From the NCBI RefSeq assembly GCF_056746865.1, contig NZ_CM163382.1: a stretch of DNA of 64,000 bases. One strand, given 5' to 3'. A program made the translations under genes and the position numbers. How positions within the stretch are numbered: position 1 is the stretch's first letter; every line of letters starts with the position of its first letter. The notes under the pieces are model-generated. The model saw only the letters and a list, made by a program, of their open reading frames with translations. It searched no databases and was not told the origin of the DNA. Of the stretch, positions 15,554 through 32,792 are shown one piece after another.

Positions 15554-15628
15554 ATGAGCCAATATTTGATTTTTCAGCTTCATGGGCCAATGGCATCCTG
15601 GGGCGTCGATGCCCCGGCGAAGGGAACA
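15554..15628 (+). pseudogene. cas5: 5' fragment of cas5 (casD); coding similarity ends after about 25 codons
   Basis: Translation MSQYLIFQLHGPMASWGVDAPAKG matches the Cas5e N-terminus (MxxYLIxxLxGPMxxWG), but the remainder (TIQHHTRPVIARILRVLKSILYTFLYTF...) is non-Cas-like and runs into repeats. No cas6e/cas1/cas2 follow. Confidence 0.6.
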
Positions 15629-15685
15629 ATACAACATCACACAAGGCCAGTAATAGCGCGAATCCTGCGAGTTCTAAAATCAATT

Positions 15686-15709
15686 CTATACACATTTCTA
15701 TACACATTT
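15686..15709. repeat. 12-bp tandem direct repeat (tctatacacatt x2) at the element's left end
   Basis: Exact tandem duplication read directly from the sequence. Confidence 0.4.
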
Positions 15710-16113
15710 ATCCCTCGCTTGAGGGTTATGCGTCATCGTTATCGGCTATCTCGCTGGTGGATGATCACGGATGGCCTGATATCTACAGCCGCCTTAAAAA
15801 GCTGTACCCGACAAGCATTACTGCGTATCGGGTTCGTTCGCTCTTTCTACTCGTGGCAGATGAGTTTATCGGTGTGATTTTATCGGGCGAGGGTATTGTA
15901 TCAGGCATCCCCTTTTCTATGCAGATTTGCATAGTTCCGAATGGTGGCGTTATGGAAGCCTCCCATATCAGCATCATGCCCACCAGCGTGAAGTATTTTT
16001 TTATTTCGCGGGTGTAAAAATTTGACGAGGCGGGCGGTCCCATAAGCAATGGATTGTAGGGATTTCGCTCCCCCCCTCCTGAATGCAATTTTTCGTATAT
16101 ATATACAAAACAG

Positions 16114-16269
16114 TGCGGGTTATGCGGGTTACCGGGTTATCTTAGTATGCTAACTATTTTTTGTTCTTTAGTATCAATATGTTGCAAAATACACTGTTCA
16201 TTATTCAAGCATCACATAACCCGCAAAACATCCCAAATAACCCGCAAACGCCCCAAAATAACCCGCAAA
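16114..16269. repeat. Iteron cluster A (crr-like cis replication region)
   Basis: Three direct copies gcgggtta(t/c) at 16114-16140, an AT-rich spacer of about 75 bp, then three inverted copies ataacccgcaaa at 16216, 16237 and 16258 (21-bp spacing). Confidence 0.6.
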
Positions 16270-16876
16270 CACATTGCTGAAAGCAGGGGTTGATAGTTCC
16301 ACTGGTGCCACAGAACGGCTGAATACGGTAACTGTTGCTGGTGGTCTGTCCTGTTGTCGTTCCAGTCTCATCAAATTGAGAGGCAAGACAAAGTGCATTT
16401 TTGCACTATAGCCAAAGCCTCATAAAACAGAGTTACCCCCACAGGCTGGCAAACCATTACCCAACGCAATTAAGTGCGTCAGAATCGATTACAGCGCGTT
16501 CCTGTGGCACGTTGTTGCCGTTCTCAGCAGTGAAAGGAGAGAGTGAAAAGCGCATATCTATTACTGTTGAGGGGTGTAGCGGCATATATCGCGAATATCC
16601 ACGCCCTTAATCCCGATACCGTCACGGCGCATTGAGATCCACCAGAAGATTAAGATAGTTTTTACCTGAAATTATCCAAATAATTGTTTTAACTGATTAA
16701 TTTTTCGAATATCTATTGTTAGGGAATAAATCATCAGATACACCATAAAACGACATCTTTCAGGGTGTAGAAGATGCAAAGCCGGTACTGAAGAAAAGAC
16801 AAAGAATATGAATGGCTGGCCACACGATGGAAGGATTGTCCATTGAAGGATAAATCCCCGTGGTACAAGTTTTGGT

Positions 16877-16900
16877 AAGCCCGCAGCGCGGGCTTTTTTG
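16877..16900 (+). terminator. Intrinsic terminator (aagcccgc-agc-gcgggctt + T6)
   Basis: Perfect GC-rich hairpin followed by tttttt; ends a roughly 250 bp region without a convincing ORF. Confidence 0.5.
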
Positions 16901-16971
16901 TGGACGAAACAAAAGTCAGTGCTACATTCATTGACGCCACATCGAGGTGGCTTATAGATGGAAATTTCACA

Positions 16972-17133
16972 ATGAAAAAAGCATTTGCTGCACTGTTCGT
17001 TTTGTTGTCTCTGGTAGCTTCAACTCAGGCCTTTGCCGGTCGTTGTCAGCACGACAGCGATACTGCCGCTGACGGCTCCCGCTGCGGTGGGCGTTCTGCG
17101 GATTCCCGCCCGGGCGGCGGTGGCATTCGTTAA
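16972..17133 (+). CDS. Small secreted Gly/Arg-rich protein (hypothetical)
   Basis: 53 aa: MKKAFAALFVLLSLVASTQAFA signal peptide followed by a Gly/Arg/Cys-rich tail; the internal start of the 16900..17133 ORF is preferred because of the signal peptide. Confidence 0.35.
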   Translation: MKKAFAALFVLLSLVASTQAFAGRCQHDSDTAADGSRCGGRSADSRPGGGGIR

Positions 17134-17138
17134 AAACA

Positions 17139-17160
17139 AGGCCGCGAAAGCGGCCTGTTT
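17139..17160. terminator. Bidirectional intrinsic terminator between convergent genes
   Basis: Hairpin aggccgc-gaaa-gcggcct with A/T-rich flanks on both sides, between the 16972..17133 (+) and 17163..18014 (-) genes. Confidence 0.5.
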
Positions 17161-17162
17161 GA

Positions 17163-18014
17163 TCACTGTGCAGTTTTCGCTGATCGATTTTCAGCTCTAA
17201 ATTCAAGAACCGTTTCAATATTTCTTTCCTTCAGCATATCAATAACATTTTTATTCATTTGACTATCACTGGTTAATAACTGGTAAACGTTGCTTCTCTC
17301 TTTATCAGAATTTTCTTTAACAGCTGCTTTGCATGCCAAATGCTTATTGAAATTTTCTACATCGCTAGTACAGGAATTTACGGCTGCTGATGAAATATCA
17401 GACGCTGAAGAAACACCATCATCCAAACGTTTTATAGCATTTTCTATACATGAGTTAAGGGAATAAACGACAACTGAGCGATACCCTTCAGACGCACACC
17501 ATTCTAAATTTCTTGAAGGATCGAGTGGTTTTACTTCGCTGGATTGAATTAACTTGTCAAAAACTGACTTATATTCAATCTGTTTTTTATCTATAGCCCA
17601 TACTTCAGTAGCTGATTTATAATTCCCCGTATGCCTATTAACATCAAATCCATGTTTTATAAGCAAATCTGCCCATGAAAGATTTATTGATTCATTGTTA
17701 TGAGGCCATTTTCCTGTCAGAACCGCCCCCATAGACCCCATATATCCGCCATATGATGGTATAGCACCATGGCTCAGTAACTTCTCAGCAACCACAGGGC
17801 AATTAATTACATAAGAGGCGTAAAGCCCATTCCATAAAGCCCCTCTATAGTAATCGCCACGATTAGGTTCTTTTAAGTCGATAGCCTTTGATAATTGTTC
17901 ACACGTTTTGCATGCATCAAAGTTATCCTTATTGCATTGCAATGAACTGGCGGCTGTAGGATTTACAGAGACTATTGAAAGCACTATGCCAAAAAACAAA
18001 TTTATTTTTTTCAT
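17163..18014 (-). CDS. Secreted Cys-rich protein of unknown function (third gene of cargo operon)
   Basis: 283 aa; N-terminal signal peptide MKKINLFFGIVLSIVSVNPTAAS, multiple Cys pairs, possible ankyrin-like helical repeats (weak); start lies 1 nt after the stop of the 1129 aa gene. Confidence 0.7.
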   Translation of the reverse strand: MKKINLFFGIVLSIVSVNPTAASSLQCNKDNFDACKTCEQLSKAIDLKEPNRGDYYRGALWNGLYASYVINCPVVAEKLLSHGAIPSYGGYMGSMGAVLTGKWPHNNESINLSWADLLIKHGFDVNRHTGNYKSATEVWAIDKKQIEYKSVFDKLIQSSEVKPLDPSRNLEWCASEGYRSVVVYSLNSCIENAIKRLDDGVSSASDISSAAVNSCTSDVENFNKHLACKAAVKENSDKERSNVYQLLTSDSQMNKNVIDMLKERNIETVLEFRAENRSAKTAQ

Positions 18015-18015
18015 C

Positions 18016-21000
18016 CTATTTCATCTGCTCTTCAACTTTATTTAGTAATGGTGATATCGCCCACAGATTCTGAAAAGGTAGCATTTTACGGACAGCGTGG
18101 GTTTGCTGGCTGTCAAATTCTCCGTTAAGTACACCATTTGCAACCGTCGCGGCATCACCGCCAAGATCAAAGGTAGGACCAAGTAAAGCACCAATAGCAT
18201 TACGACTCTGAAACCTTGATACCGGAGGCGCACCAAACATCGCGCCAAGACCAAACCTACCGCCGCTTATGTTCTCAACGGTATTCAGCGGCTCAGAGAG
18301 CCAGCCAAGCATTCCGCCCCGGTCGATCCCCTCTTTCACAAGGTTATTCCAGCTGTAGTCGATATCGCGACCGCTTAACTTCTGTTTCATCATATAGACC
18401 ATTGAGCCAAGCGCAATCGTGCCAAGCGCACCAAGATAGAATGAAGCATCGCCCTGCTGGATACCAGATACCAACACCCTGTTATGCTGTGCGAAGATAA
18501 ACGTTTTGAACTGCGTGATCATCTTCCAGCCTTCTTTACTAAAAAACAGCGGTGTATCACCTACGCCAGGCGTTACAATCACTGAGTCTACATCTTTCAG
18601 CACTGCAGACTGGAAAATCTCTCTAGCGAAACGGTCATCCCACAGATGACTATGCCCGGTTAACAGCCCGTCCATATCCTCTCCGTGCTTCCCGAATTGC
18701 TCCCCGATTCGGCGCAGAACATCTTCATTGATGCCGACCTGTGCCATCTTCCGCATTTCACTTTTGGCGAGCGTGCCACCAGCAGAAACCTGGCGAGCCG
18801 CGTCAAGTATCCTCGACTGCACTATCATCCCGGACCATGATTTAAGTGCGCTGTTCCACTGATTCATCAGCGTCCAGTTACCGAATTTCTGCGTCATCCA
18901 GTTCAGGCCTCGCTCAGCGGCGCTTCTCCGGCTATAGGGGTCAGTAAGATCCGCTATAGCCTTTGTACGCGTAGACAGGACATAATCAAGCCCAACGGCC
19001 ATTTCTCGCAAATCCCTGGTTGCAATTTTCACTGAGTCCATATTTTTAAGCATGCTTACCATTGGTCCGAGAGATTTTCTCAGGCCATGCTGCATCATCG
19101 GTCGCATCAGATCAGTTGCAGCGGAGACGGTCATTCCACCAAGCAAACGGAGGAAGTTAATATTCCTAGCAACTCGCCCGGCACGAACAAAGAAACTGCG
19201 TGGATCTTGAGGTGCGCCGTAAGTACCAAGCAGTCGGTCACGCATAGCCGTAATATCCCTAATATCAGCCTCCCGTTGCTTCTCAAGAGCTGCACGTCGT
19301 TTAGGTGTTTTAGCCTCTTTTATTAGCCGGGTATATTCCTCACTAACCTGACGGATTTGCTCCCCCATATCTTTACGGCCAAACTGCGCAGTCAGCTCAA
19401 TTTCTGGTGCCACCTGCCGGAGATAACTTTCCATGATGTAGTTAACATCTGATTCAAGAAAATCTTCTATACGCTCATCAGGAATAAGCAGCGTTCGGCT
19501 TTTAGTGAAACCAGCCCGACCAACGAGTCTCTCTGGGATAATATCGGCTGGTACAAGCCCGGAAGGTGCGCCTATTATTTTATTCACGATCTCGTCAGCA
19601 GCGTCCTCTGCTTCCTCTCGGGATAGAGGCTCCATCTGCTTCAGTGCTCGCTCGCGGCTTGCATTCAGCCTTGTGGTTGAATTTGCCCGTTTTTGCAGTC
19701 GGCGAAGCTCAGAACGATATTTCCGTGGATTATCCAGCAACTCCATATGGCGCTGATAGACAGGAAGCTCACTCTTTGCCTGCGCTATATCATCAAGGCG
19801 TGTTTTAAGGTCAGAGCTTTCTTTCATCATTCTTGCCTGAAGTTTTTCTGATGAAGTCTCGGCCAACTCTTTTTCTATTCTTGTAAGACGCGCCTGTGTG
19901 TCAGTCTCCTGAGATATAAGCTTATTTCGTTTATCCAGTTCTTCCATGAGTAGAATTTTTTTACCAGACCATTTCTCCGCTTCAGCGATTTCACTAGCGA
20001 GAGCATCAGCGCGCGGTGCCGATTCCTCTGCAGTTTTTAGCAATGAATTTATCCTTTCAATTCGCTGACCTGCTTTGTCAGCACCTTTGGCACTAATCCC
20101 TTGTATCCAGTTGGCAATTCGCCCTCTGAATTCAGTGCGGTCGGAAAGTATCTTATCGAACTTATAAATGCGGGGAAGATAACTTTTCGCCGTCACGACA
20201 TCGATATCCTCAGGAAGGATCCCCAGTTCCTGCATACGGGCTTTTGTGGTCTCGAAAATGGGGCGGATTCTGGCGGCTGCTTGTGAAACCTCAGGAATAT
20301 CACTCTGATCACCACGGCGCATAGCCATGCCAACAGCTTCATTGAAATCAATAAAGCTCATCCTCTTCACGCCGCGGGCGCTGACAGATTTGCTGTACTG
20401 CTGGTAAGCATCACGAGTGGCTTCCATCTGCTTATAAAGCATGGCGTCGTATTGCTTAATCTTAGTCTCGACTGCCGTAAACGTAGCCAACCCCTCATCA
20501 TTTTTGGCGAAGAAATAGTTATTTTCGGCAAGCTGCTGGTTAATCTGACGGGAGACAAGAGATGGTGATTGCGCCAAGCGGCCAGCAGGAGTGACACTCA
20601 ACGTTTTGTTAGCAAGTCCAAGTCCAGCGAGCTGTTCCTGATCGAGTGTGGTATTGAAAACCTGAGCTGCACCAATGCTTTGAGGAGAATCCATACCTCG
20701 CAAATGATTACCTACTGAGTTAACCACTGCCTCGCGCGCGCTAGGTCCAGCAAGTAGCTGTGCACCAGCACCAAGGATCCCACCAACGAGAGCATCAACA
20801 ACAACGTTCGATACGCTCTCCATCGGTGAGCGAGCTTCCTGAGTGGCCTGCAATGCGGCCTCTGAAGCAACACTGCCAGCAGCATTGGCTAAAGCAAAAC
20901 GTCCGGCTGTTTCTGCAATACGACCGCCACGAACGACAGCGCCGAACGGAATAAACATAGAAATCGCATTGAATGGATCTGCTAATCTCATTGCTACAGA

Positions 21001-21405
21001 AGAGACTGTACCAGCAAATCCCAAGCCTGAATTGTATTCCATGTCAGCTCTCTGCTGATCGATTCGATGTTTAATTGCCATTGTTTCTTCAGGCGAACCG
21101 GAGTTGATAAACGAATCTGCAAAATCTTCATAGCCTTTAATATCTGCTGCATCGTTATCAAATGGGTTATATCCTTCAATCCTGTCAAACTGACTGAAAG
21201 GAGCACTGGCAATAAAGCTACCCAGCGTGTTATCTATACGAAATGCTGCTTGTCTAGACCTTTGAACGCGTTGATCACTGGTAAATGGGTTCACAGCAGA
21301 AAGCAAAGAAGGTGTTTCCATATAGAAATTACTGTCATCAGGTGCTGCTATTTGCTGAATATCCTCGCCAAGCAACTCTTTAGGATCCTGTTCATATATC
21401 GGCAT
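18016..21405 (-). CDS. Very large protein of unknown function (1129 aa; second gene of cargo operon)
   Basis: Long uninterrupted ORF; small-residue-rich hydrophobic segments (GAGAQLLAG, GALGTIALGSMVYMM, GLGAMFGAPP), long coiled-coil-like Glu/Lys/Arg/Gln-rich stretches, no P-loop or HExxH motif. Start codon overlaps the stop of the upstream 915 aa gene (TAATG). Confidence 0.75.
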   Translation of the reverse strand: MPIYEQDPKELLGEDIQQIAAPDDSNFYMETPSLLSAVNPFTSDQRVQRSRQAAFRIDNTLGSFIASAPFSQFDRIEGYNPFDNDAADIKGYEDFADSFINSGSPEETMAIKHRIDQQRADMEYNSGLGFAGTVSSVAMRLADPFNAISMFIPFGAVVRGGRIAETAGRFALANAAGSVASEAALQATQEARSPMESVSNVVVDALVGGILGAGAQLLAGPSAREAVVNSVGNHLRGMDSPQSIGAAQVFNTTLDQEQLAGLGLANKTLSVTPAGRLAQSPSLVSRQINQQLAENNYFFAKNDEGLATFTAVETKIKQYDAMLYKQMEATRDAYQQYSKSVSARGVKRMSFIDFNEAVGMAMRRGDQSDIPEVSQAAARIRPIFETTKARMQELGILPEDIDVVTAKSYLPRIYKFDKILSDRTEFRGRIANWIQGISAKGADKAGQRIERINSLLKTAEESAPRADALASEIAEAEKWSGKKILLMEELDKRNKLISQETDTQARLTRIEKELAETSSEKLQARMMKESSDLKTRLDDIAQAKSELPVYQRHMELLDNPRKYRSELRRLQKRANSTTRLNASRERALKQMEPLSREEAEDAADEIVNKIIGAPSGLVPADIIPERLVGRAGFTKSRTLLIPDERIEDFLESDVNYIMESYLRQVAPEIELTAQFGRKDMGEQIRQVSEEYTRLIKEAKTPKRRAALEKQREADIRDITAMRDRLLGTYGAPQDPRSFFVRAGRVARNINFLRLLGGMTVSAATDLMRPMMQHGLRKSLGPMVSMLKNMDSVKIATRDLREMAVGLDYVLSTRTKAIADLTDPYSRRSAAERGLNWMTQKFGNWTLMNQWNSALKSWSGMIVQSRILDAARQVSAGGTLAKSEMRKMAQVGINEDVLRRIGEQFGKHGEDMDGLLTGHSHLWDDRFAREIFQSAVLKDVDSVIVTPGVGDTPLFFSKEGWKMITQFKTFIFAQHNRVLVSGIQQGDASFYLGALGTIALGSMVYMMKQKLSGRDIDYSWNNLVKEGIDRGGMLGWLSEPLNTVENISGGRFGLGAMFGAPPVSRFQSRNAIGALLGPTFDLGGDAATVANGVLNGEFDSQQTHAVRKMLPFQNLWAISPLLNKVEEQMK

Positions 21406-24152
21406 TATTTGCCCCCTGCGTATATATTGCTCGGAAGGTAATTGGCTGAACCATAACCGAATGGTTTGGTCAGATCTGGAGGAGTATATCCATCTTTATT
21501 GCTGAACTGCGGCAGCGGATTGCCTTCTCTCCGCACTCTAGCCTCATCAACACGCTGTTGCTGGAACTGAATGGTTTGCCTGTACATTGGAGATGTCAGC
21601 TGATCCGGCTTGAAACGAACAGGGAGACCATTTTCTCCAATATAATTTCTCGGTTCTATCGCTCCGTTTGCGTCAGGCTGTAAAACCATAACAGCATAAC
21701 TCCTATCCCTTGCCGTAAGGCCATCAGAAACAAGTATTAAGTCCGTATCACTGCGAGGACCGCCAAAGGATTTTGATTTAAGCTCGCGTTTTTCCTGCTC
21801 CCACTGCCCCTGTATCCAGTTACCAGCACCATTATTTACTCCGTACAATGCCTCAGGTGCATACTTCATAACCTCTGCTTTGCCATTAACCGTAGAAACT
21901 CCCCAGGTGGTTCTGATCATGGCATTGGTCATTTTCTCAGCCTGTTCTGCATCGCCACCTGTCTGTACAAAGTTAGCATCGTAAATTGTCTGGTAATCTC
22001 GCTGATAGGCCGCATTTGATTTTCCTGGATCGGTAATATCCGGAGACCACGAACCAAAGGAAGTCAGACTGCTGGCGTTATTTTGTGCAGCAGTTACCCT
22101 CGCCGCGACATATTTTTTGTCTCGCATGGCAGTGGAAAGCATCTGTTTCATTCGGTCATCCTGTTGGAACACCTGACTGTAAGCCATATCAACAGCCTTA
22201 TCCTCCGGCACGCCAGCGCGGGAATAATCGTAAACCTTGCCATAAAATGCCATCGTACTTTTATCAAGTGTTGCCGCTGCCGCCGGATTATTATCGAATA
22301 ACTGACCGTAGAATTTTGCCATCGGGACAACCAGCGCAGGATCTCTTGATGTTGCTCCACTGTTAAGCATTGTTTTAACCTGAGTTGGTATCATGCCGCT
22401 TTTAGTTGTGACGGTGACCAGTGTATTGATGCTCTGCGGATCAGATATGGAAAACGAAGGCGCGATATCCTGCGCGAAATAACGGTCTACCGCTGCCTGA
22501 TTGTTTTTGTCGTTCGGGTCCAGCGGGAAGTTATTTTGCATTGAAGACACGAACCTGTTTCTTCCCTGCTGAATCTCCCACTCCCTATCCATCTCTTTAA
22601 ATTTGGCCTGCATTTTCTCCCAGCGTTGCTGGTTAGCAGCAAATCCAGGAGCATTTGGATCCTGTGGACGTAAACGTTCAAGAATGTCTTGTCGTCCTTC
22701 TGGAGTGAGGTCTTTAGCGGCACCAATGACACCTCCATATTGTATCTGCGCCTGCATATCCTTCCACTTCATAGCGCCAATGCGCGGACCATTGGCCCGG
22801 ATAAAATCGTCCTCAGAAGGTAACTTCTCAGGTTTCAATCCTTCATCAAGGGCTGAATATGCATCTTTAACTACGGTGCTAAGCTGGTCCGCATACTGCT
22901 GGCGGTACTGATTTCTCAGCTCATTAGCCTGCCTCAATGCCTGTATTTGCATTTGAGGGCTCATAGCATCAAATGCCGCATTGCCCGTATAACGCTTAGG
23001 TGAATCAAGGTTAGTTAGACCAAGGGCTGCCGAGATACCAGTTTCAAGCTGTTCGGTGCTATAAGGCATACTGCCATTTTCGTGTTTAATAATCCCAGCA
23101 CATAAAGCAGCTAGTGTCTTTGGGTTAGAGATATCAAGCTGATCATTCTCCCCAACACCAAGCTCACCACACAATGCCCTAATATAAGCATCAGTATTAT
23201 TACCATCACTAGCCGGAGCATAGCGATTAACAATCTCGCTAACGGTGTCATAGCCTTGACGCTGGTAAGACAACATATTTTTACCCAACGCGCGGATTCC
23301 ATGCTCAGGGGTAGCAAACGTTGCAAAACGTCCATCGCTACCGATCTGACCTTCCCACGGGTTAGATTTGCTCGCTTCAATATTACCAGGGTTATTATTA
23401 CGTAAACCACGAGCATCCAATGAATTACCATGTGATATTGCACGACTCACACCATCAAGATCCCCTGGCTCTCCATTAACCTGAAGAAACTCGTTGTATT
23501 TTTGAGCGATATTTCCTATCCATGCTTGCTGCCCCATTTGTTCCTTGAGCTGAGTTTTCTGCTGAACACGCCACTCATCAGGAAGCCCATGCGCATCAGC
23601 GTATTGATCAATAGATTCAAATCGCTGCTTGGCTAAATCGACAAATGCTTGGTTATAGCTATATAGCCCCGCAGACTGAGTGACAGCCAATGCATTTCCT
23701 GACAAATACGTTTGATCTTGGAATTGCTGAAACTGCCCAACTTCATATCGACGTGCCTGATTGTAATAAGACTGCATAGACTGCTGGAGTTGAAAGGATA
23801 ATTTATTCCTTTCCTCACTTTCAGGGATTGAGCCTAATAATGCCTGAGCCCTTTCCTGCATATTTTTCATAACAGCGTCACTCTGACCAAGAGCGTTTTT
23901 ACCCTGTTTAGAAATCAGCCCATTTTCAGGGTTGTTAATCTGGTCATCTGCAAATTGGTTAAATTGCAGTAACGCCTCCTGGGCCATAGCAACATTCGCT
24001 TTCTGCCTGGCTTCACCATATGCCACCGCATACTGATCTGCGACATTCGCCAGCACCTGACCTGCTTGAGGAACATCGAAGGTCTGAAAACCACCGGTTT
24101 GCACACCACGACTTTGCACCTGGCGTCCGGATGTAGTAGGAACAACAAGCAT
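21405..24152 (-). CDS. Very large protein of unknown function (915 aa; first large gene of cargo operon)
   Basis: Long ORF preceded by strong SD (AGGAGGT 6 nt upstream); Gln/Ala-rich helical protein with a central block RNNNPGNIEASKSNPWEGQIGSDGRFATFATPEHGIRALGKNMLSYQ that looks like a conserved domain I cannot assign. Confidence 0.75.
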   Translation of the reverse strand: MLVVPTTSGRQVQSRGVQTGGFQTFDVPQAGQVLANVADQYAVAYGEARQKANVAMAQEALLQFNQFADDQINNPENGLISKQGKNALGQSDAVMKNMQERAQALLGSIPESEERNKLSFQLQQSMQSYYNQARRYEVGQFQQFQDQTYLSGNALAVTQSAGLYSYNQAFVDLAKQRFESIDQYADAHGLPDEWRVQQKTQLKEQMGQQAWIGNIAQKYNEFLQVNGEPGDLDGVSRAISHGNSLDARGLRNNNPGNIEASKSNPWEGQIGSDGRFATFATPEHGIRALGKNMLSYQRQGYDTVSEIVNRYAPASDGNNTDAYIRALCGELGVGENDQLDISNPKTLAALCAGIIKHENGSMPYSTEQLETGISAALGLTNLDSPKRYTGNAAFDAMSPQMQIQALRQANELRNQYRQQYADQLSTVVKDAYSALDEGLKPEKLPSEDDFIRANGPRIGAMKWKDMQAQIQYGGVIGAAKDLTPEGRQDILERLRPQDPNAPGFAANQQRWEKMQAKFKEMDREWEIQQGRNRFVSSMQNNFPLDPNDKNNQAAVDRYFAQDIAPSFSISDPQSINTLVTVTTKSGMIPTQVKTMLNSGATSRDPALVVPMAKFYGQLFDNNPAAAATLDKSTMAFYGKVYDYSRAGVPEDKAVDMAYSQVFQQDDRMKQMLSTAMRDKKYVAARVTAAQNNASSLTSFGSWSPDITDPGKSNAAYQRDYQTIYDANFVQTGGDAEQAEKMTNAMIRTTWGVSTVNGKAEVMKYAPEALYGVNNGAGNWIQGQWEQEKRELKSKSFGGPRSDTDLILVSDGLTARDRSYAVMVLQPDANGAIEPRNYIGENGLPVRFKPDQLTSPMYRQTIQFQQQRVDEARVRREGNPLPQFSNKDGYTPPDLTKPFGYGSANYLPSNIYAGGK

Positions 24153-24248
24153 CAGTAACCTCCTATTTTGAATCGGGAGTCAGAATTCATAAAACCTGAG
24201 TTAGATAACATTGGCGTCCCTCTGCTTTGATGCTGTACCAGCGATTCA

Positions 24249-24455
24249 TTACTCACCCCCCGATGCAAAACCATTCTGATTAAGCCAGGCGTTTACGGCA
24301 TGTCTGACAATCTGCGCCACGCCTGGTAATGGCTGATCAGGGTGATTGTTCACATGGTCGATTCTGTACTGCTTAAGGCGCATCACGGTCTGTGCATCCA
24401 GATGAACGGAACCACCTCTGACATCGCCTGTGTTCAGGTCGTTAATACAATTCAC
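24249..24455 (-). CDS. Small protein (68 aa), possible DNA-binding/leader gene upstream of cargo operon
   Basis: ORF with SD (agagga) upstream and the same strand as the operon; not otherwise supported. Confidence 0.4.
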   Translation of the reverse strand: MNCINDLNTGDVRGGSVHLDAQTVMRLKQYRIDHVNNHPDQPLPGVAQIVRHAVNAWLNQNGFASGGE

Positions 24456-24555
24456 AGCAATTTCCTCTTACTGACTAAACTATGCACATTATTGATCTGA
24501 AAAAGTGGTAGATAAACATATTTCTATCACAAAAACAGATTAATTGATTTCAGCC

Positions 24556-24580
24556 AAAAAAAAGCCGGATTGCTCCGGCT
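24556..24580 (-). terminator. Intrinsic terminator on minus strand (agccggagcaatccggct + T8)
   Basis: Hairpin followed by eight T on the minus strand, placed between the IS200/IS605 element and the cargo operon. Confidence 0.45.
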
Positions 24581-24785
24581 CTGTGCTTACTTCTGGTAGT
24601 TACGCCATACTGATTTCCCGATCCCATCTATCCCCATTTCTTTTTCAGTGCGTTTAAGCGACCGTTTCAGGTCTTCTAAATTATCCGGTTGCTTCGGTGG
24701 CCTCTGTGCCTTCCTGGAACATTCCAGTCGTCGCATTGATATTTGACATCCTCCACGCCCTGAAGGACGTGGATTCCTGCTACGT

Positions 24786-25994
24786 TCAGGCTGTCGCCTG
24801 AATCATTTCGGTGGGTTCCTGCTTCAACGGGCGGCCTGACTGCACCATCCCTCCACAGGCAAGAACGGCGTGCCCCGCCGCTAAAATGTTACGAGCGCCG
24901 TTTACATCGGCGTTCGCTGTATATCCACATACCTGGCATCTGAATTGACTTTGTGACAGGCGATTTTCTTTCGCTGTATGACCACAGCACGCGCAACGCT
25001 GGCTTGTGTACGCTGGCGGAACAGCAAGCACCTGACCGCCACACCAGAGCTGCTTGTACTCAAGCTGACGGCGCATTTCATACCAGCCCTGATCCAGTAT
25101 CGAACGGTTTAAACCTGATTTTGCCCGGACATTGCGCCCCGGCTGGCTGACCGTACCCGAGGCTGACTTTGACATGTTGCTGACCTTCAAATCCTCAATG
25201 ACTATCATTGCGTGGTTTTTGCTGATGGTCGTTGTGACTTTGTGAAGGTAGTCCCTGCGGATATTTGCGATACGGGAATGCAGTCGCTGTATTTTGCGTT
25301 TCTGCTTCTGCCAGTTGTTGCTGAATTTAACCTTGCGGCTTAACTGGCGCTGAAGTCTCGCCAGCTTCTTCTGGTTTTTATGAAAACTGTTTACAGGCTC
25401 AAAGACCGTGCCATCTGACAGCGTGGCGAGTTTAGCCACGCCAGCATCCAGCCCGACCATTAATGCTGAAGGGTGAACCGGAGTTGATACTTCACTTTCT
25501 GTCTGAATACTGATGTACCACTTACCGCAGGACTGGCTGACAGTGACATTTTTCACAACACCCGTGACCTGACGGCTGTTCCGGTAGCGCATCCAGCCCA
25601 GTTTCGGCAGAAAAATACGGCTGTTTTCCTGATCGAGCTTAACACCCTGCGGATAGCGGAATGCATCATGCTGTCCCCGCTTTTTGAATCGGGGAAAAGC
25701 GGCACGCTTCTGAAAGAAATTTTTGTAGGCTCGCTCAAGGTCTTTCAGTGACTGCTGCAATGGCTGTGAGGGAGAATCTTTAAGCCATTGCGTTTCAGTA
25801 GCATTTTTCCATTCAACCAGCCAGGAAGTCATCTTTGCATAAGAAATATATTTGTTCCCGGCCTCATGATTCTCATTCTGAAGCGCCAGAGCACGATTGA
25901 AAACGAAACGACATGCGCCCGCGAAGCGCCTCATTTCACGCTCCTGTTTTCCATTTGGTCTTAACTGGAATTTGAAAGCTTGTAGTCGTTTCAT
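24786..25994 (-). CDS. tnpB: TnpB (OrfB) RNA-guided nuclease-like protein of IS200/IS605 family
   Basis: 402 aa with a C-terminal zinc finger (CACCGH...CQVCGY) and RuvC-III-like motif (DVNGARNI). Confidence 0.85.
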
Positions 25995-26016
25995 ATGCCA
26001 AATTATACTTTGGCCT

Positions 26017-26433
26017 ATGAAAAAAGAAACCGATATCCGACGTGGAAGGCACTGTGTCTTCCTGATGCACGTTCACCTGGTCTTTGTTACCAAGTACCGA
26101 CGCCAGATTTTTGACCATGACGCAATAGAAAAACTACGCACTTACTTTTCAAGTGTATGTGCTGATTTTGAAGCTGAACTGGTTGAAATGGATGGAGAAC
26201 GAGATCACGTTCACCTGCTAATTAACTATCCTCCCAAATTGGCGATATCCACCCTGGTGAACAGTCTCAAGGGCGTATCGAGTAGATTATTGCGACGAGA
26301 TCGACCAGATATTGCAGTCAGGTATTACTACAAAGGCGTTTTATGGAGTCCCAGCTATTTTGCCAGTAGCTGCGGAGGTGCGCCAATATCCATCATCCGC
26401 CAATACATTGAACAACAGCAAACACCTAGTTAG
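26017..26433 (+). CDS. tnpA: IS200/IS605 Y1 (HUH) transposase TnpA
   Basis: Internal start MKKETDIRRG of ORF 25897..26433; HUH motif HVHLVF and the catalytic-Tyr region YYYKGVLWSPSYFASSCGG. Confidence 0.85.
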   Translation: MKKETDIRRGRHCVFLMHVHLVFVTKYRRQIFDHDAIEKLRTYFSSVCADFEAELVEMDGERDHVHLLINYPPKLAISTLVNSLKGVSSRLLRRDRPDIAVRYYYKGVLWSPSYFASSCGGAPISIIRQYIEQQQTPS

Positions 26434-26516
26434 GTGGAAAACCGCGCCTTATATCCCCGACCTGAAGGACGGGGCTTTACGGCGCACTGGGTAATTACTC
26501 TGTTCGCTGTTGTGAA

Positions 26517-26942
26517 TTAAAACGGTATCCCGTCCCCGTACGGATCATCGTGCTGGCCTGTCTGTTGCTTTGCCCTGTTCAGTGCATCAGTAGCCTGCCC
26601 CTGCTGGCCTTTTTTGCCGCCCGGTCGCGCCGTTCGCGCACTGATTACGCTGTCTGCGATAACCTGCCATCCCTGCCTCGTTTCGCCGTTCTGGCCCGTC
26701 CACCAGCTCACCTGCATGTTACCGGCCACGCTCACCAGTTCGCCTTTGTGGTGTTTTGCCAGTGCGTCAGCCTGTCTGCCAAACGCCAGGACGGATAACC
26801 ACATCGTCGCCGTTCCGTCATCTGTCTGATTGCATGGAAGGGGGACCGCCATACTCGCCATCGCCATTTGTGTGCCCTTGCTGGTGGTCTTTAACTGCGG
26901 GTCAGCCACCAGCCGCCCGTAAGCTGATATTTGCGCCGTCAT
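26517..26942 (-). CDS. ssb: Single-stranded DNA-binding protein
   Basis: 141 aa OB-fold-like protein with a Gly/Gln-rich tail ending in the acidic tip DDPYGDGIPF (SSB C-terminal D..IPF signature). Confidence 0.85.
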   Translation of the reverse strand: MTAQISAYGRLVADPQLKTTSKGTQMAMASMAVPLPCNQTDDGTATMWLSVLAFGRQADALAKHHKGELVSVAGNMQVSWWTGQNGETRQGWQVIADSVISARTARPGGKKGQQGQATDALNRAKQQTGQHDDPYGDGIPF

Positions 26943-27002
26943 GCTGTTTGTTCTCCGGTTTTAACGTGATAGTTACGCTTGTTTACACTCTTACAGTGAA
27001 AT

Positions 27003-27130
27003 TTTGCGGGTTACAATCGCACATTTGCGGGTTATAACTGCCGTTTTGCGGGTTACGTGCGGGTTATTAATTTCCTTTTTAATCATTCAGTTAATTAACT
27101 TATGCACAGGATAACCCGCATAACCCGCAA
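27003..27130. repeat. Iteron cluster B (candidate replication origin next to primase gene)
   Basis: Four direct copies (t)gcgggtta at 27003-27067, an AT-rich spacer, then two inverted copies ataacccgca at 27111-27129; same 9-mer as cluster A. Confidence 0.6.
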
Positions 27131-27152
27131 CTTTTTACCTCACACAGGGAAG

Positions 27153-29279
27153 TTAATCTTCTGCTTCAGGCTGGAACATCAGCACGTAAAAAATATGTTG
27201 CTTCCCGCCAATCCTGCCGAGCGCCTTTTTCTTGTAACGGCGGTCGCCTCCCGCTTCCAGCATTCCGGCTGCACTCAACGCGCGGGCAAAGTGAGACGGA
27301 TTAAATCCCTGTGCTATCTCACCCTCAAACACATGCGGGAACGTGTAAAAACGGAACTCGTCATCTTCGTTTCTGATACTCCCCTTTCTGTATCCGGCAA
27401 GGTCTTTAATCGGTAAATCACGCTCGTCGCTGTTTGGATAGGGAAGGTATCGACTGAACCCGAACGACGACAAAAACGCCTCAGCCTGTTCAACCATCTG
27501 TTTAAACTCCCTGTTCCCCGTGCCGAACTCCTTCACCCAGGCATTAAAATTATGCTGAATGGCATCGCGGCATTCCTGCTCATCCCAGCCAGTAACATGA
27601 CCGGAAAGTACAAGCGCGGCCTCCAGTATGGCGAATCGTTCCCCCACACGGTGAACCTGTTCGCCGTAGCTCTCCGGTATCAGGTTGCGCCACCGCTCGC
27701 GACATGCCCTTACCGCGTCCTTTGCCTCCTGCTGGTGTTCTGCCAGCCATTTAACCCACTCACGACCTGCCGCCCCGTGATTTTCTGTCCAGGCATCTTT
27801 TAACGCGTCTGCGTGCGCCTTTCCGGTGCTGTATTCGTGAAACTGCGAGGCCTTTTCCATCGGCACGTTAAGCAGACGGACAAGCTGCCCCGCTTTAATT
27901 TTTATCCCTTCCGTTTTGAGGAATGTTTCAACGTCCATTTCTCCGGTGCTGATTGCCACCGTGCGCCAGTGTTTTATCTCCCTGTTGCCGCCGTCCTTCG
28001 CCCCCTGTAATTTCCCCGAACCGTTAAACAGCGTATAGGCTGACGTGGACACCTCCCGCGCGTTTCCGGCCTGGCCTATTTCATCCAGGGGTAACAGCCC
28101 GTCATTATGTGCTTCGGCCTCGTTGGCGATACCTAACGCCGTTCCGTACCAGGTCAGCCGTTGCGCGTCCGGCTCTCCCCATAAACTTGATGCAATGTTC
28201 TGTGTGGTGGTTTTACCTGCTGATGATTGCTCAAAAAGATGAACCCCGAAGCCGTCAGCACCCACCAGCCCGATTAATGGTGCAGATAGCGATACCGCCA
28301 CACCCAGCATCATGGACGGATTACCACCAGCCAGCCGTGCCACGGTATCGCGCCAGCCCTCCGCTGTTCCCGCCACGGAATAGCCATTAACAGCGGCAGT
28401 TTTTCCGGTAAACAGGATGGGTTTCTCTGATTCACCGATGATCGAACCATCCGGCATGATGTACGCACCAAAATGCCACCCCGTTGTTGTGCTTAACTGC
28501 CATTCCTCATGGTTTCCGCTTAACTGCATCCAGTCAGCCAGGATAGCCCTGTATTTGCCGTTGGTCGTCACGTTAAGGCCGTGGTCTTTCAGCAACCGCC
28601 AGCCGTCACGGTCACCAATGCCTCCGCACGGGACCGCCATTGTAATGACCTCATGGTTTGCTGGTTTTTTCCAGCGCATCACGCGGTAATGCTCTTTGCC
28701 GATTGTTCCTGTTCCCAGTAGTTCAAGCGGAGAACATAACCACGTCTCAGGCCGGATAATTTCGCCTGACTGCTTGTCCACTTTGGGCGTTACCCAGAAA
28801 ACACCATCGACGCGACTTTCAACACGAGGCTTTAATTCGTCATCATAATTTCCGGTGAAATTTGTCTTCGCCGGAAGGTTGATCACCAGACTGTTACCGC
28901 GTTCCGCATCATACTTCAGTCCAGCCATGCGCGGAGTCCAGTCCTCCGGCTGCTGATCAACAAAGCTGCGGTAGCAACGCGCCTCCTTCACACCCGCCAC
29001 TGCAAGCAGTGTCGCTATCTGTGTAAGGTGCTGCTCTGATATTTCACCAGCACGATAAATGCGCACGTAATAGCGTCCTTTGTCGATGATTTGCGTGTCT
29101 GCCAGACTCGCCAGTTGTTCCGGTCCAAGAATAACTGGATGTGTATCATCTGCCGCAATATGCTTTCCGGCCCATTCGCTCCACTCTTTCGCATGTGCCC
29201 AGGCATCACTACCCGCAAAGATAATCACCTCCGTCATTTTGTCTTTCGGCTGGTGCTTTAAATTCGGTGCGCGTTTCAT
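27153..29279 (-). CDS. Primase-helicase (TOPRIM-like N-terminus, P-loop NTPase of the DUF927/D5 type), P4 alpha-like replication protein
   Basis: 708 aa; N-terminal TOPRIM-like segment (VIIFAGSDAWAHAK...PVILGPEQ) and Walker A EQSSAGKTT; iterons lie immediately downstream. Confidence 0.75.
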   Translation of the reverse strand: MKRAPNLKHQPKDKMTEVIIFAGSDAWAHAKEWSEWAGKHIAADDTHPVILGPEQLASLADTQIIDKGRYYVRIYRAGEISEQHLTQIATLLAVAGVKEARCYRSFVDQQPEDWTPRMAGLKYDAERGNSLVINLPAKTNFTGNYDDELKPRVESRVDGVFWVTPKVDKQSGEIIRPETWLCSPLELLGTGTIGKEHYRVMRWKKPANHEVITMAVPCGGIGDRDGWRLLKDHGLNVTTNGKYRAILADWMQLSGNHEEWQLSTTTGWHFGAYIMPDGSIIGESEKPILFTGKTAAVNGYSVAGTAEGWRDTVARLAGGNPSMMLGVAVSLSAPLIGLVGADGFGVHLFEQSSAGKTTTQNIASSLWGEPDAQRLTWYGTALGIANEAEAHNDGLLPLDEIGQAGNAREVSTSAYTLFNGSGKLQGAKDGGNREIKHWRTVAISTGEMDVETFLKTEGIKIKAGQLVRLLNVPMEKASQFHEYSTGKAHADALKDAWTENHGAAGREWVKWLAEHQQEAKDAVRACRERWRNLIPESYGEQVHRVGERFAILEAALVLSGHVTGWDEQECRDAIQHNFNAWVKEFGTGNREFKQMVEQAEAFLSSFGFSRYLPYPNSDERDLPIKDLAGYRKGSIRNEDDEFRFYTFPHVFEGEIAQGFNPSHFARALSAAGMLEAGGDRRYKKKALGRIGGKQHIFYVLMFQPEAED

Positions 29280-29578
29280 TTCTTGCCCCTGAATGCGTTA
29301 ATCATGTTCTTTATTACCTGAATATTTGCCCGTGCTTTCTCTTTACTGGTGGGCTTACTGCGTGGTGCTGCACATACCAGTGAAAAATCACGCCGGAACT
29401 GATGAACGGGCATCACACAGTCATAGTCGTACCCTGCGCGGCGGTATGTAATGTGCCGTTCATACACGGAATTAATAACCACGCTGTCGCCATATTTATC
29501 CCGGAAAATATCCCCGATCCTGATTTTCGGATGAGTCTGTCCGCTGGCATTTAAGCCAGTAAATTTAATCTTCTTCAT
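29276..29578 (-). CDS. Hypothetical protein (100 aa), translationally coupled to primase gene
   Basis: ORF whose stop overlaps the primase start; no recognisable motif. Confidence 0.5.
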   Translation of the reverse strand: MKKIKFTGLNASGQTHPKIRIGDIFRDKYGDSVVINSVYERHITYRRAGYDYDCVMPVHQFRRDFSLVCAAPRSKPTSKEKARANIQVIKNMINAFRGKK

Positions 29579-29580
29579 GT

Positions 29581-29838
29581 TTATTTCCCGGTGTGAGGTT
29601 CTTCTTTATATTTATGGGCTAACAAATCTGGTAATTGCCTGTATTTATCCTCGGCAATATATTCAGAATAATCGACAGCACTGTTCAGTATATCTAACGC
29701 CGTTTCATGCTCCAGATTCGAAACTATAAGGAACGTTGCTACTTTTAGCATATTCGCGATATGCAAAAGAGCATCAATTTCATTTTTTGGCGCTTCACTG
29801 AATTTTTGCTCCAGAAGAATAAATCGTTCATCACGCAT
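29581..29838 (-). CDS. Hypothetical protein (85 aa)
   Basis: ORF in the same operon, 2 nt upstream of the next gene. Confidence 0.5.
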   Translation of the reverse strand: MRDERFILLEQKFSEAPKNEIDALLHIANMLKVATFLIVSNLEHETALDILNSAVDYSEYIAEDKYRQLPDLLAHKYKEEPHTGK

Positions 29839-30034
29839 AGTATTCCCCCTGACGGATGCGGGCAGTAAATACCATCACGCAGCCAGCCGGGGATTGCTGG
29901 CGTGCTTCCTGTTCGCTGGTGGCCACGATGGTAATCACACGCGGTTTTGCGGCGCTCAGGGCGATAAAACGCCAGGCGAATTTATTCAGGTTGTGCGAAT
30001 CCCGCCCTTGCGGGTGTATGGTATGATTTCTCAT
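29831..30034 (-). CDS. Hypothetical protein (67 aa), first gene of replication operon
   Basis: C-terminal part of the spurious 415 aa ORF 29831..31078; start ATG at 30034 is preceded by GAGGT and overlaps the next gene by 8 nt. Confidence 0.45.
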   Translation of the reverse strand: MRNHTIHPQGRDSHNLNKFAWRFIALSAAKPRVITIVATSEQEARQQSPAGCVMVFTARIRQGEYYA

Positions 30035-30130
30035 AGCTACCTCGATACTCTCGTTATCGTTGGTGGTTAGAAGCCCTGCGAGTGGTAACGACACTTGCGG
30101 GGCTTTGTTTTTTGTTGCACTTACTGTTAA

Positions 30131-30174
30131 TGTACGTACGTAATATTGATGATAATAGGAGTTACGTACGTACA
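30131..30174. promoter_or_regulatory. Operator: inverted repeat tgtacgtacgtaa-N18-ttacgtacgtaca in divergent promoter region
   Basis: 13-bp arms, each containing the self-complementary octamer GTACGTAC; the right arm overlaps the start codon of the RHH gene. Confidence 0.5.
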
Positions 30175-30365
30175 TGTCAACATTAAAGCGGGATAAATCA
30201 CCACGCGGCGAGGGATGGTCGCCGACATTCCAGATACGAATTAGCAAAGAACTACGCCAGCAAGTAAACGAGGCAGCAACCGCCGATGGCCTAACCCTCG
30301 GCAATTGGTTTAAAGAATTAGCTCGTGCCGAACTAAAGCGACGCGGCATTGAACCTAAAGGCTGA
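30174..30365 (+). CDS. Ribbon-helix-helix (Arc/Mnt/CopG-like) DNA-binding protein, candidate repressor
   Basis: 63 aa; FQIRISKELRQQVNEAATADGLTLGNWFKELARAEL fits the beta-strand/helix/helix RHH pattern; it sits on the palindromic operator. Confidence 0.55.
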   Translation: MSTLKRDKSPRGEGWSPTFQIRISKELRQQVNEAATADGLTLGNWFKELARAELKRRGIEPKG

Positions 30366-30551
30366 TGTATGACTGAAAAGCAGACCGATAACAAACTTTC
30401 TCTACCAGAGAATAAACCAGCAGGCTTCTTACCAAGAAAAATCCTTGATGAGATCAAACGCCGCCAGCGGCGCAAGGCCAAAGAGCAGGAGTAACCATCA
30501 CCAGCGCCGTGGTGCGGTGAACTGTGGCGCACAGGGTTACAGGTATCTACG

Positions 30552-30749
30552 ATGACTGACAAATCATTAAAGAAATTATCCTCATCCAGGAAAAAACAAC
30601 GCAAAAATGCGGTAAGCGAACAAGAACAGGAAAGATTTGCGCCATGTGCGTTTGTCCTTGAGAAGTTCTTAAAAGAGTACAGGCGCACAAAAATGGAATC
30701 GCATACCTGGAAAACATCGCAGTATGGCGATGCTAAAGAGCAGGAATAG
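30552..30749 (+). CDS. Hypothetical basic protein (65 aa)
   Basis: ORF only; weak support. Confidence 0.3.
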   Translation: MTDKSLKKLSSSRKKQRKNAVSEQEQERFAPCAFVLEKFLKEYRRTKMESHTWKTSQYGDAKEQE

Positions 30750-30917
30750 CCCACCAGCAAGCCAGCACACTGATCACATTGCCCACCAGCCGCAAATCTG
30801 GCATTGTTGGCGATGCGTTTGATTTCCTTTGTTCCCACTGGCGACCTATCCCGGTCGCCTTTGTTTTGCCTGTTATCCAGCAACGGGGCGCTTTTTCTTT
30901 CTGTAACGTTCGGATCG

Positions 30918-31475
30918 TTACACATTGCTTTCACCCTCCAGAAAATCAGGCTGATATTTACGCCATAGCGCCCGCTCTTCTCGTTCCAGTGCATCTTTTG
31001 CCTCTTTGCATTGCTGTAACCTGTAACCGCGTTTGCTGGCTTCCTGTTGATATGCAGCCTGACGTTTACTGAAATCATTCAGCATGGCAAACGGAACACC
31101 ATAACCCCCCGTTTTGCGGATTGAAGGAATCACCTCGCGGAATACCCAGTTACTGAAACGGTGCGCAAATGTGCCTGGTGTGGAAGCTTTACGGCTGCGG
31201 GCGATCAGTTTGTAGAAACCTGATTCAGAGACAACATTCCAGCTTCTGGCACCACCACGCTTACCGGAATGACCCTCGGTTAAAGCTAGGGTCATTACCT
31301 CATCGTTATCCAGAACTGAAACGGCATCAGTAACATTGCTGATTTCCAGCGCGGCACACACATCAGCGCCAACAAACCACGGCTCGCCGTTGATACTCAC
31401 TATGCGCACCTGAATGTCATCGAATTTAATGACAGAGATTTCAGTGCGACCGGCATAAAAGACAGGTTTACGCAT
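30918..31475 (-). CDS. Bro-N domain protein (phage antirepressor-like)
   Basis: 185 aa; N-terminal Bro-N-like segment FDDIQVRIVSINGEPWFVGADVCAALE. Confidence 0.7.
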   Translation of the reverse strand: MRKPVFYAGRTEISVIKFDDIQVRIVSINGEPWFVGADVCAALEISNVTDAVSVLDNDEVMTLALTEGHSGKRGGARSWNVVSESGFYKLIARSRKASTPGTFAHRFSNWVFREVIPSIRKTGGYGVPFAMLNDFSKRQAAYQQEASKRGYRLQQCKEAKDALEREERALWRKYQPDFLEGESNV

Positions 31476-32292: not shown

Positions 32293-32367
32293 AAAAACTC
32301 CGCTATCGAATTAAGTTACTTTTTATTTGCTAGTGGATAGCTTGGGCAATAACCCGTAGCTATTTAA

Positions 32368-32565
32368 TCAGGCAGCCGTTCCGCGTGATTCGGCAATACG
32401 CTGATTGATCCATTCGTCAATTTCACTTTCAACGAAAGCAATCGCTCGCGAGCCAATTTTAACTGATGCAGGAAATTTACCTTGCCCCATAAGGCGATAA
32501 ATCCATGCCTTGCTATATCCAGTTCTACGCTGAACTTCTGTTAAACGAATAAGCGTATTTGACAT
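32368..32565 (-). CDS. alpA: AlpA-family transcriptional regulator / excisionase-like protein
   Basis: 65 aa with the MerR-like HTH pattern of AlpA (LIRLTEVQRRTGYSKAWIYRLM...SEIDEWINQR). Confidence 0.8.
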   Translation of the reverse strand: MSNTLIRLTEVQRRTGYSKAWIYRLMGQGKFPASVKIGSRAIAFVESEIDEWINQRIAESRGTAA

Positions 32566-32668
32566 CTATTTACCTCATAACGTCTACTCAATTTGACGAG
32601 GTAATCATGGCACAGAAATAACGAATATTTTCATACCCTCAGGCCTAATGGTTACCGGAAGGAAATTA

Positions 32669-32777: not shown

Positions 32778-32792
32778 ATGCGGTATGGTGCG

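Follow-up and report, generated by a model that had tools for sequence, protein, structure and literature searches.

The ejection proteins of podoviruses form a core on the portal and are expelled at infection to bridge the cell envelope (PMC8954989). A literature search for satellites encoding ejection or internal virion proteins yielded a sole match, the paper on EcCIMP1, a 20-kb phage-inducible chromosomal island (PICI) of Escherichia coli MP1 that the podovirus Kapi1 mobilizes by excision and transduction (Pick, Stadel & Raivio, ISME J 2025, PMC11773190). EcCIMP1 adds superinfection immunity to its podovirus helper and contains no known defense system, and its ejection genes were regarded by the authors as packaging candidates, with their role left open (PMC11773190). 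Here, we analyzed a stretch of 64,000 nucleotides (nt) from contig NZ_CM163382.1 of NCBI RefSeq assembly GCF_056746865.1 (the window, to which all positions refer), in which a PICI-type satellite at the tRNA-Gly(CCC) gene glyU carries an operon of minus-strand genes coding for proteins of 915, 1129 and 283 amino acids (aa). We assign a probability of about 0.8 to the overall explanation that this operon derives from an epsilon15-like (Uetakevirus-type) temperate podovirus and represents the distal part of its internal-core/DNA-ejection module.

The phage origin of the segment is evident from its distribution. When window positions 17000-24600 were used as a megablast query against 5,426 complete E. 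coli genomes, 118 of them covered at least 80% of the query, with identity reaching 99.9%, and the annotations in the matching genomes included “virion core protein, T7 gp14 family”. Near-identical copies are found in more than 100 complete E. coli prophages, and between about 16876 and 24220, where the phage homology ends on either side, the window is 99.4% identical over 7346 bp to prophage L001 from strain SBF22 and to the isolated Escherichia phage EC.W1-9 (L017; PP445227, 40.6 kb), the gene arrays of which are identical to each other. In SBF22, the three genes of the operon are part of a complete prophage, preceded on the 5′ side by a gp14-family gene with its stop codon overlapping the start of the 915-aa gene, a gene for 155 aa, a 2.5-kb gene of the size of tail-tube B and a 0.6-kb gene, and, further 5′, by genes for “capsid staple gp10”, a Bbp16-type cement protein, major capsid protein, protease, portal and terminase, while tail fiber and lysis genes follow on the 3′ side. 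The gene order in EC.W1-9-type phages is that of gp11-gp18 in Salmonella phage epsilon15, and in EC.W1-9, as well as in prophages SBF22 and ECE228, the core genes are located between the tail-tube and tail fiber/spike genes, in the same synteny as in epsilon15. The window itself retains only the distal genes of the core module, with the gp14-type first component reduced to 23 codons.

The original prediction, made from the window sequence, had presented the operon as an orphan with no assignable function and as the best candidate for an undescribed system, while remarking that the sizes of its products recall the internal-core/ejection sets of podoviruses. It is the latter remark that was borne out: PHROG profiles assign both giant proteins to virion families, and the near-identical phage and prophages carry gp14-family, tail-tube, capsid, portal and terminase genes next to them; full-length homology to a known phage virion module, with capsid and tail genes next to it in related genomes, had been named beforehand as the observation that would refute a new system, and it is what we found. 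A non-virion cargo system with a novel anti-phage or host-interaction mechanism has virtually no likelihood left. Its placement in a satellite-like island is correct, and domain libraries were uninformative, as Pfam yielded nothing useful for the 915-, 1129- and 283-aa proteins or for the 68-aa product of the preceding gene (the DUF919 match behind a RefSeq name covers a 46-residue coiled coil at E 5e-5), NCBIfam yielded no match, and PADLOC defense models matched none of the five proteins searched; against it stand a near-identical virion module in a sequenced phage and in over 100 prophages, the full-length matches to PHROG virion families, and homology to epsilon15 gp15-gp17.

The 915-aa protein matches PHROG 1044 over its full length (E = 0), with a further match of the central domain to PHROG 7182, “tail injection transglycosylase”. 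The domain at residues 247-399 matches the N-terminus of the 1295-aa Gp29 chain (PDB 9vvp_L, E 5e-35) as well as the catalytic domain within the endolysin from Hafnia phage Enc34 (PDB 7Q47, E 4e-15), a member of the PHA02564 family with a lysozyme fold, muralytic activity demonstrated by experiment and catalytic Glu131 (PMC8943055). The ...RHENGS motif of this endolysin is aligned with IIKHENGS in the 915-aa protein, and the conserved Glu corresponds to E358, the putative catalytic residue of an intact lysozyme-fold domain at residues 247-362. The presence of this domain, which belongs to a type characterized only of late, together with the conserved Glu motif indicates that the 915-aa protein is probably the muralytic ejection protein of EC.W1-9-type phages. 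It is also 43% identical over 516 aa to an 843-aa island protein from another cargo type (cassette B, see below), which occupies the position of epsilon15 gp15. The compact conserved-looking block which had been singled out earlier (RNNNPGNIEASK...) is real and constitutes the opening of the muralytic domain, so that the accompanying statement that none of the operon proteins has a recognizable catalytic motif was wrong, in view of the PDB matches and the HENGS motif.

Its neighbor, the 1129-aa protein, is assigned with an E value of 3e-232 to PHROG 342, “internal virion protein with endolysin domain”, the match extending over profile positions 192-1227 of 1235; since it begins only at position 192, the protein should be without the N-terminal enzyme domain of that family. 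In tblastn searches, it recovered “internal virion protein” genes from podophages of Vibrio, Pelagibacter, Sphaerotilus and Mesorhizobium. The protein is helical throughout, its hydropathy profile shows a single strongly hydrophobic segment, at residues 197-220, and its AlphaFold2 (AF2) model, with a mean confidence score (pLDDT) of 47, was too poor for a fold search. Comparison with PDB, either as a single sequence or as a profile, yielded coiled-coil noise alone, and neither phmmer nor profile searches of PDB with the 915-aa and 1129-aa proteins retrieved a T7 gp15 or gp16 chain. We regard it as the probable large helical partner of the 915-aa ejection protein.

The 283-aa protein had been described as secreted and Cys-rich, and indeed it has an N-terminal hydrophobic signal-like segment and eight cysteines, all of which are invariant among 14 homologs. 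It belongs to PHROG 6118, a family annotated without a function, and its homologs form only 22 clusters, every one of them from Enterobacterales. The AF2 model is all-helical (pLDDT 76), and fold searches against PDB, AFDB50 and BFVD returned weak ankyrin-like and DUF1311/LprI-like similarities and nothing stronger. The latter concern residues 170-283, a confidently modeled helical bundle with a weak resemblance to the DUF1311/LprI “lysozyme inhibitor” periplasmic lipoproteins (E 0.1-0.3, far from significant), which is nevertheless suggestive in the vicinity of a protein with a lysozyme-fold domain. The gene is present in EC.W1-9 and SBF22 and missing from most islands, and in the island of strain CS5L its slot is filled by other small genes. 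Its behavior in these respects is that of a variable accessory gene of phages.

The operon agrees with the genes of EC.W1-9 in order and sizes. The resemblance of the EC.W1-9-type module to that of epsilon15 includes gene order, location after the tail tubular A/B, gp13 and gp14 genes and before the tailspike, homology of the 915-aa protein to the gp15-type protein, and a muralytic domain in the protein at the gp15 position. The two differ in that epsilon15 has gp16 and gp17 where EC.W1-9-type phages have a single 1129-aa protein with no detectable similarity to either; the window, in addition, has neither gp14 nor any other virion gene of these phages. With the T7 gp14/gp15/gp16 ejectosome, the module shares the three-gene organization, large helical proteins, a peptidoglycan hydrolase in the set, and a first gene which in complete prophages is recognized by the NCBI “T7 gp14 family” model, as well as the expected mode of action, in which a core stacked on the portal is ejected as a trans-envelope channel (PMC8954989). 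However, the hydrolase in the window is of the PHA02564/Enc34 type and resides in the gp15-position protein, whereas the T7 hydrolase is an N-terminal SLT domain of gp16. In the phage, the gp14-family, 915-aa and 1129-aa proteins would be built into the procapsid on the portal and, at infection, all three would be expelled through the tail to form a trans-envelope conduit for DNA, with the 915-aa protein presumably cutting peptidoglycan through its lysozyme-fold domain, the 1129-aa protein providing the long helical, membrane-inserting part, and the 283-aa protein acting as a phage accessory protein in the periplasm.

While ejection genes as such are standard, their presence in an EcCIMP1-like PICI is the point that remains. 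The original prediction correctly placed the operon within a satellite-like island: the element has an AlpA-type helix-turn-helix (HTH) regulator near the integrase gene, an int-alpA RNA motif, a DUF927 primase, an iteron region, an attachment (att) repeat and a size within the range of about 10-20 kb, all of which are PICI features. At the aa level, it is 66%, 78%, 74% and 62% identical to EcCIMP1 in the integrase, HTH regulator, AntA/AntB and primase, respectively; both elements also contain DUF4222, Icd-like and PerC genes, are about 19-20 kb in size, reside in a tRNA gene and carry a podovirus ejection-protein operon 3′ of the primase. The EcCIMP1 cassette, in contrast, is complete, of the P22 type and non-homologous to that of the window, being composed of DUF2824, a 225-aa protein, a 439-aa “DNA ejection protein” and a 906-aa gp16-like lytic-transglycosylase protein with 46-52% identity to P22-type gp16 “DNA transfer proteins”. 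Furthermore, EcCIMP1 integrates at tRNA-Thr, and its mobility was demonstrated experimentally.

The operon had been thought to sit at the accessory end of the island, but it occupies the slot 3′ of the primase which in relatives is used for capsid and packaging genes, and the ori-like region lies beyond it. In primase relatives from other genera, capsid, protease, portal, large-terminase or other virion genes are found 3′ of the primase, identifying this as the virion-gene slot of the satellite. The DUF927-primase relatives from Pantoea and Winslowiella, which hold capsid, protease, portal and large-terminase genes there, are comparable to capsid-forming PICIs; the window lineage differs from them in having ejection genes and no packaging genes, with nine codons left of its capsid gene. 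The absence of capsid, tail and packaging genes noted earlier was confirmed, as the annotation shows the ejection cassette as the only virion cargo, and genes for capsid, portal, terminase, tail or lysis are absent. Eleven primase-relative loci from other species contained capsid/packaging or other cargo and no core-protein cassette, and the cassette-bearing lineage therefore appears to be confined to E. coli.

The 68-aa gene, which the original prediction viewed as a possible leader of the operon, is rather a conserved island gene that precedes the capsid gene in sister islands. Its product (WP_000995640.1; PHROG 4934, a family annotated without a function; no match in Pfam or PDB) is found in islands of all cargo types, with 91% aa identity in capsid-type islands, and its upstream region is 90% identical to the counterpart in capsid-type island L005; the AT-rich stretch 3′ of the terminator is the presumed promoter of the 68-aa/cassette unit. 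A capsid-protease fusion follows the 68-aa gene in about 160 E. coli genomes. In E. coli ST131 strain 751 (L005 13107-15356), too, the 68-aa gene and its upstream region are followed by an intact 637-aa ClpP-protease/major-capsid fusion gene, after which come, in L005-type sister islands, a truncated tail gene, one for tail assembly and a DUF1441 gene, together an odd partial virion set.

In the window, the ATG of the capsid-fusion remnant overlaps the 68-aa stop codon, and a junction of a few bases separates this remnant from the 3′ end of the gp14-family gene. The latter contributes the native Shine-Dalgarno sequence (AGGAGGT, 5 nt 5′ of the 915-aa ATG); downstream, base 21405 is common to the 915-aa stop and the 1129-aa start in a TAATG overlap, and between the 1129-aa stop and the 283-aa start there is a single base. 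The four open reading frames (ORFs), their translational coupling and the Shine-Dalgarno sequence are all as originally described. The junction sequence, GGTACAGCATCAAAGCRGAGGGACGCCAATGTTAT, is present in 45 of the 5,426 genomes and is identical in all islands examined (the window, L002, L003, L018 and L019) and in four IMG/VR contigs. A single junction sequence common to all islands argues for a single illegitimate recombination in which a capsid gene was swapped for distal core genes, and the arrangement points to one old capture event, with the capsid-protease gene replaced by phage DNA that begins with the last 23 codons of gp14. We rejected an origin by tandem integration and subsequent deletion, as the prophage family integrates elsewhere, next to yfgI, with an unrelated integrase.

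Behind this one junction, three very different cassettes are found. Cassette A (915 + 1129 aa) is limited, among islands, to the window and CS5L; cassette B (843 + 686 + 918 + 104 aa), present in about 36 genomes, corresponds to epsilon15 gp15-gp17, with the 918-aa protein 89% identical in aa sequence to gp17; and cassette C consists of 935 + 600 + 824 + 98 aa. The cassettes have in common the initial ~70 nt of the gp15-type gene; further downstream, shared sequence is confined to terminator-containing stretches of 24 bp and 64 bp, and these regions serve as flanks in homologous exchange. Cassettes A and B both occupy the post-gp14 position in complete prophages of the epsilon15-like family. 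In strains Ec-RL2-1X (L026) and 2022E04-002 (L027), a glyU island with cassette B coexists with a complete prophage carrying cassette A elsewhere in the genome, and the A-prophage of 2022E04-002 is 99.9% identical to the window cassette. Given this co-residence, the arrangement in the window is best explained by a recent event in which cassette A from a co-resident prophage took the place of B, one instance of the homologous exchange that swapped the cassette after its capture. As a separate observation, the distal end of the L027 island already has the 54-aa gene that A-type phages (L001, EC.W1-9) share with the window, and that is not present in islands L002 and L003.

Such exchange is also what would be expected if the 7 kb of helper-identical DNA served merely as a handle, allowing the island to recombine into replicating helper concatemers and to be co-packaged with them. 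The island has no terminase or recognizable pac/cos function, it is nearly identical to the helper type over the cassette, and exchange with prophages was frequent in our data set; nevertheless, we consider such a role improbable, as any helper segment would suffice for it, yet two unrelated island lineages hold ejection genes specifically, cassette B has no near-identical E. coli helper, and homology alone requires no purifying selection on the protein sequence.

Purifying selection is, however, apparent. The large cassette genes are intact in every island copy examined (16 of 16 aligned cassette B genes; islands L002, L018, L026, L027 and the window), and among island-borne B copies the ratio of non-synonymous to synonymous polymorphism (pN/pS) is 0.19, 0.07 and 0.17 for three genes, with 49 synonymous vs. 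19 non-synonymous differences in the 686-aa and 918-aa genes together, against a neutral expectation of about 77% non-synonymous. No prophage in the 5,426 E. coli genomes could serve as a donor of cassette B at more than 80% nt identity. We also counted in favor of use the comparison of L002 with L003, in which the island is 99.8% and the chromosomal flank 97.8% identical; the location of the cassette, which is preceded by a terminator and by a conserved upstream region common to capsid-type islands; and EcCIMP1, in which genes of the ejection class were independently acquired in the corresponding slot. On this basis, we give even odds to the proposition that the island exploits the cassette proteins. 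In that case, induction of an epsilon15-like helper would lead to expression of the cassette from the late unit of the island itself, behind the 68-aa gene, and the proteins would act in trans, either in helper-built particles or against an incoming helper phage.

Several observations weigh against such use and against the ejection-module explanation as a whole. The gp14 gene is missing in every island; the junction lies inside genes on both sides, as in an accident rather than a design; no sequence similarity or confident structural tie to T7 gp15/gp16 could be demonstrated for the 1129-aa protein; decay is seen elsewhere, with PerC annotated as frameshifted in all islands examined and fragmentary tail genes in sister islands; the window copy is itself damaged, with a reduced attL and an insertion sequence (IS) just upstream of the 68-aa/cassette unit; and repeated gene conversion with resident prophages as donors could be sufficient to maintain intact ORFs, bringing in variation already purified in phages. 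Taken to the end, these points would make the cassette an accidental phage fragment, useless to the island and repeatedly overwritten by recombination with resident epsilon15-like prophages, and constant overwriting would account for both the intact ORFs and the several alleles. We find this plausible at somewhat short of an even chance: the illegitimate junction destroyed a capsid gene, islands and prophages are co-resident, and the identity of the window cassette to prophage copies (99.4-99.9%) implies a very recent transfer. It is more difficult to reconcile with cassette B, for which the prophages offer no donor above 80% nt identity and yet copies differ at pN/pS of 0.07-0.19 with none of the 16 genes broken, with the second, unrelated ejection set in the corresponding slot of EcCIMP1, or with the conserved island region upstream of the cassette.

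A different kind of use, in which the ejection proteins, and perhaps the 283-aa protein, block the entry of helper-type DNA or poison helper virions as a superinfection-immunity or interference module, appears unlikely. It would be in line with the superinfection immunity raised by EcCIMP1 in the absence of a known defense system (PMC11773190), with the secreted nature of the 283-aa protein and the weak likeness of its C-terminal half to DUF1311/LprI, and with the difference between island and prophage alleles in the two co-resident cases. However, that fold match is weak, the 283-aa gene is missing from most islands, PADLOC found no match, and no experiment ties the EcCIMP1 phenotype to its ejection genes.

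It is worth considering what exploitation of the cassette would mean for satellites in general. Two related PICI lineages independently hold ejection operons from two podovirus groups in the capsid/packaging slot, and in the glyU-island lineage the cassette has stayed intact, with exchange among at least three alleles. Extending this to the proposal that EcCIMP1-like satellites deliberately carry an exchangeable ejection cassette, loaded into helper-built capsids so that the satellite sets the DNA-delivery apparatus of its own particles, is at present doubtful. If it were true, the cassette could serve to enter cells under helper-encoded entry exclusion or to spoil helper virions, and the three divergent alleles, as well as their mismatch with co-resident prophages, would reflect selection to differ from the helper. 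To our knowledge, DNA entry is a stage of the helper cycle for which no satellite exploitation has been known; the island family provides a natural allelic series together with co-resident helper candidates bearing on satellite tampering with this stage.

Table 1. Features of the glyU island and its phage-derived segment in the 64,000-nt window.
Feature	Position	Strand	Remarks
Host element, PICI-type satellite at tRNA-Gly(CCC) (glyU)	15616-35115	-	19.5 kb; delimited by att repeat and annotation of near-identical islands
int (tyrosine integrase)	33719-34972	-	Adjoins tRNA-Gly
int-alpA RNA motif	33607-33674	-	Rfam, 46.9 bits; between integrase and next island gene
AlpA-type HTH	32368-32565	-	
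AntA/AntB	31468-32292	-	
BRO-N	30918-31475	-	
DUF4222	29276-29578	-	
DUF927 primase	27153-29279	-	
SSB	26517-26942	-	
IS200/IS605-type insertion	24743-26490		TnpB, 402 aa, 24786-25994 (-); TnpA, 178-aa ORF, 25897-26433 (+)
Intrinsic terminator (24582-24561), then ~100 nt AT-rich upstream region	24456-24582	-	Terminator scan
68-aa gene	24249-24455	-	Conserved island gene; first in virion-gene transcription unit of the island
Capsid-fusion remnant, first 9 codons (MNRWYSIKA)	24224-24249	-	Aligned to start of L005 637-aa gene
Illegitimate junction	24221-24223		Between capsid-fusion and gp14-family remnants
gp14-family remnant, last 23 codons	24152-24220	-	Identical to 3′ end of the gene in L001 (SBF22 prophage)
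Whole phage-derived segment	about 16876-24220	-	gp14-family 3′ end, two core/ejection genes, 283-aa gene, small divergent gene with terminators
915-aa gene	21405-24152	-	Predicted internal-core/ejection protein, epsilon15 gp15 counterpart
1129-aa gene	18016-21405	-	Predicted internal virion (core/ejection) protein at gp16(-gp17) position
283-aa gene	17163-18014	-	Secreted 8-Cys all-helical protein, probable phage accessory; variable slot after core genes
54-aa gene, secreted small protein (phage moron)	16969-17133	+	PHROG 14503, “membrane associated protein”
Terminators around 54-aa gene	16877-16895; 17156-17139	+; -	
ori-like region	16114-16269	.	3x ATAACCCGCAAA at 21-bp spacing; inverted TGCGGGTTA copies around AT-rich stretch

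The remaining island features (Table 1) follow the order seen in near-identical islands, in which the integrase is succeeded by a hypothetical gene, the HTH regulator, AntA/AntB, BRO-N, YlcI, Icd-like, DUF4222, DUF927 primase, SSB, ProQ/FinO, another hypothetical gene, PerC, the 68-aa gene and the cargo. A 415-aa ORF at 29831-31078 was dismissed as spurious. The iteron architecture of the region at 16114-16269 suggests that it may act as a replication origin; its homolog is located directly 3′ of the primase gene in the Tenebrionibacter and Winslowiella islands L007 and L008. The IS insertion replaced the N-terminus of PerC, the 138-aa gene and the ProQ/FinO gene, which are retained, without the IS, in L002 and L003. 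The PerC-family gene is annotated as frameshifted in each island copy examined (L002 14837-15062, L003 15453-15678, L018 10369-10594, L019 10779-11002), and could be either a fixed pseudogene or a recoding site. Islands of Serratia (L012 12842-13939) and Rahnella (L015 13422-14516), in which a gene matching PHROG 196, “baseplate hub”, is found just 3′ of a related primase, likewise have a lone virion gene in the satellite slot.

The left end of the island has been rearranged. The 18-bp att repeat TGGAGCGGGCGAAGGGAA is found in L002 and L003, and 11 bp of it are left at attL in the window. Exactly at this point, casD (cas5e, type I-E; window 15554-15626) is cut after about 24 codons, with cas3, cse1, cse2 and cas7 intact upstream. 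The ~100 kb that usually separate the cas operon from glyU, including the rest of the operon, the array of clustered regularly interspaced short palindromic repeats (CRISPR) and the ETT2 region, are apparently gone, and the location of the crossover inside the att core suggests an integrase-mediated deletion at a pseudo-att site.

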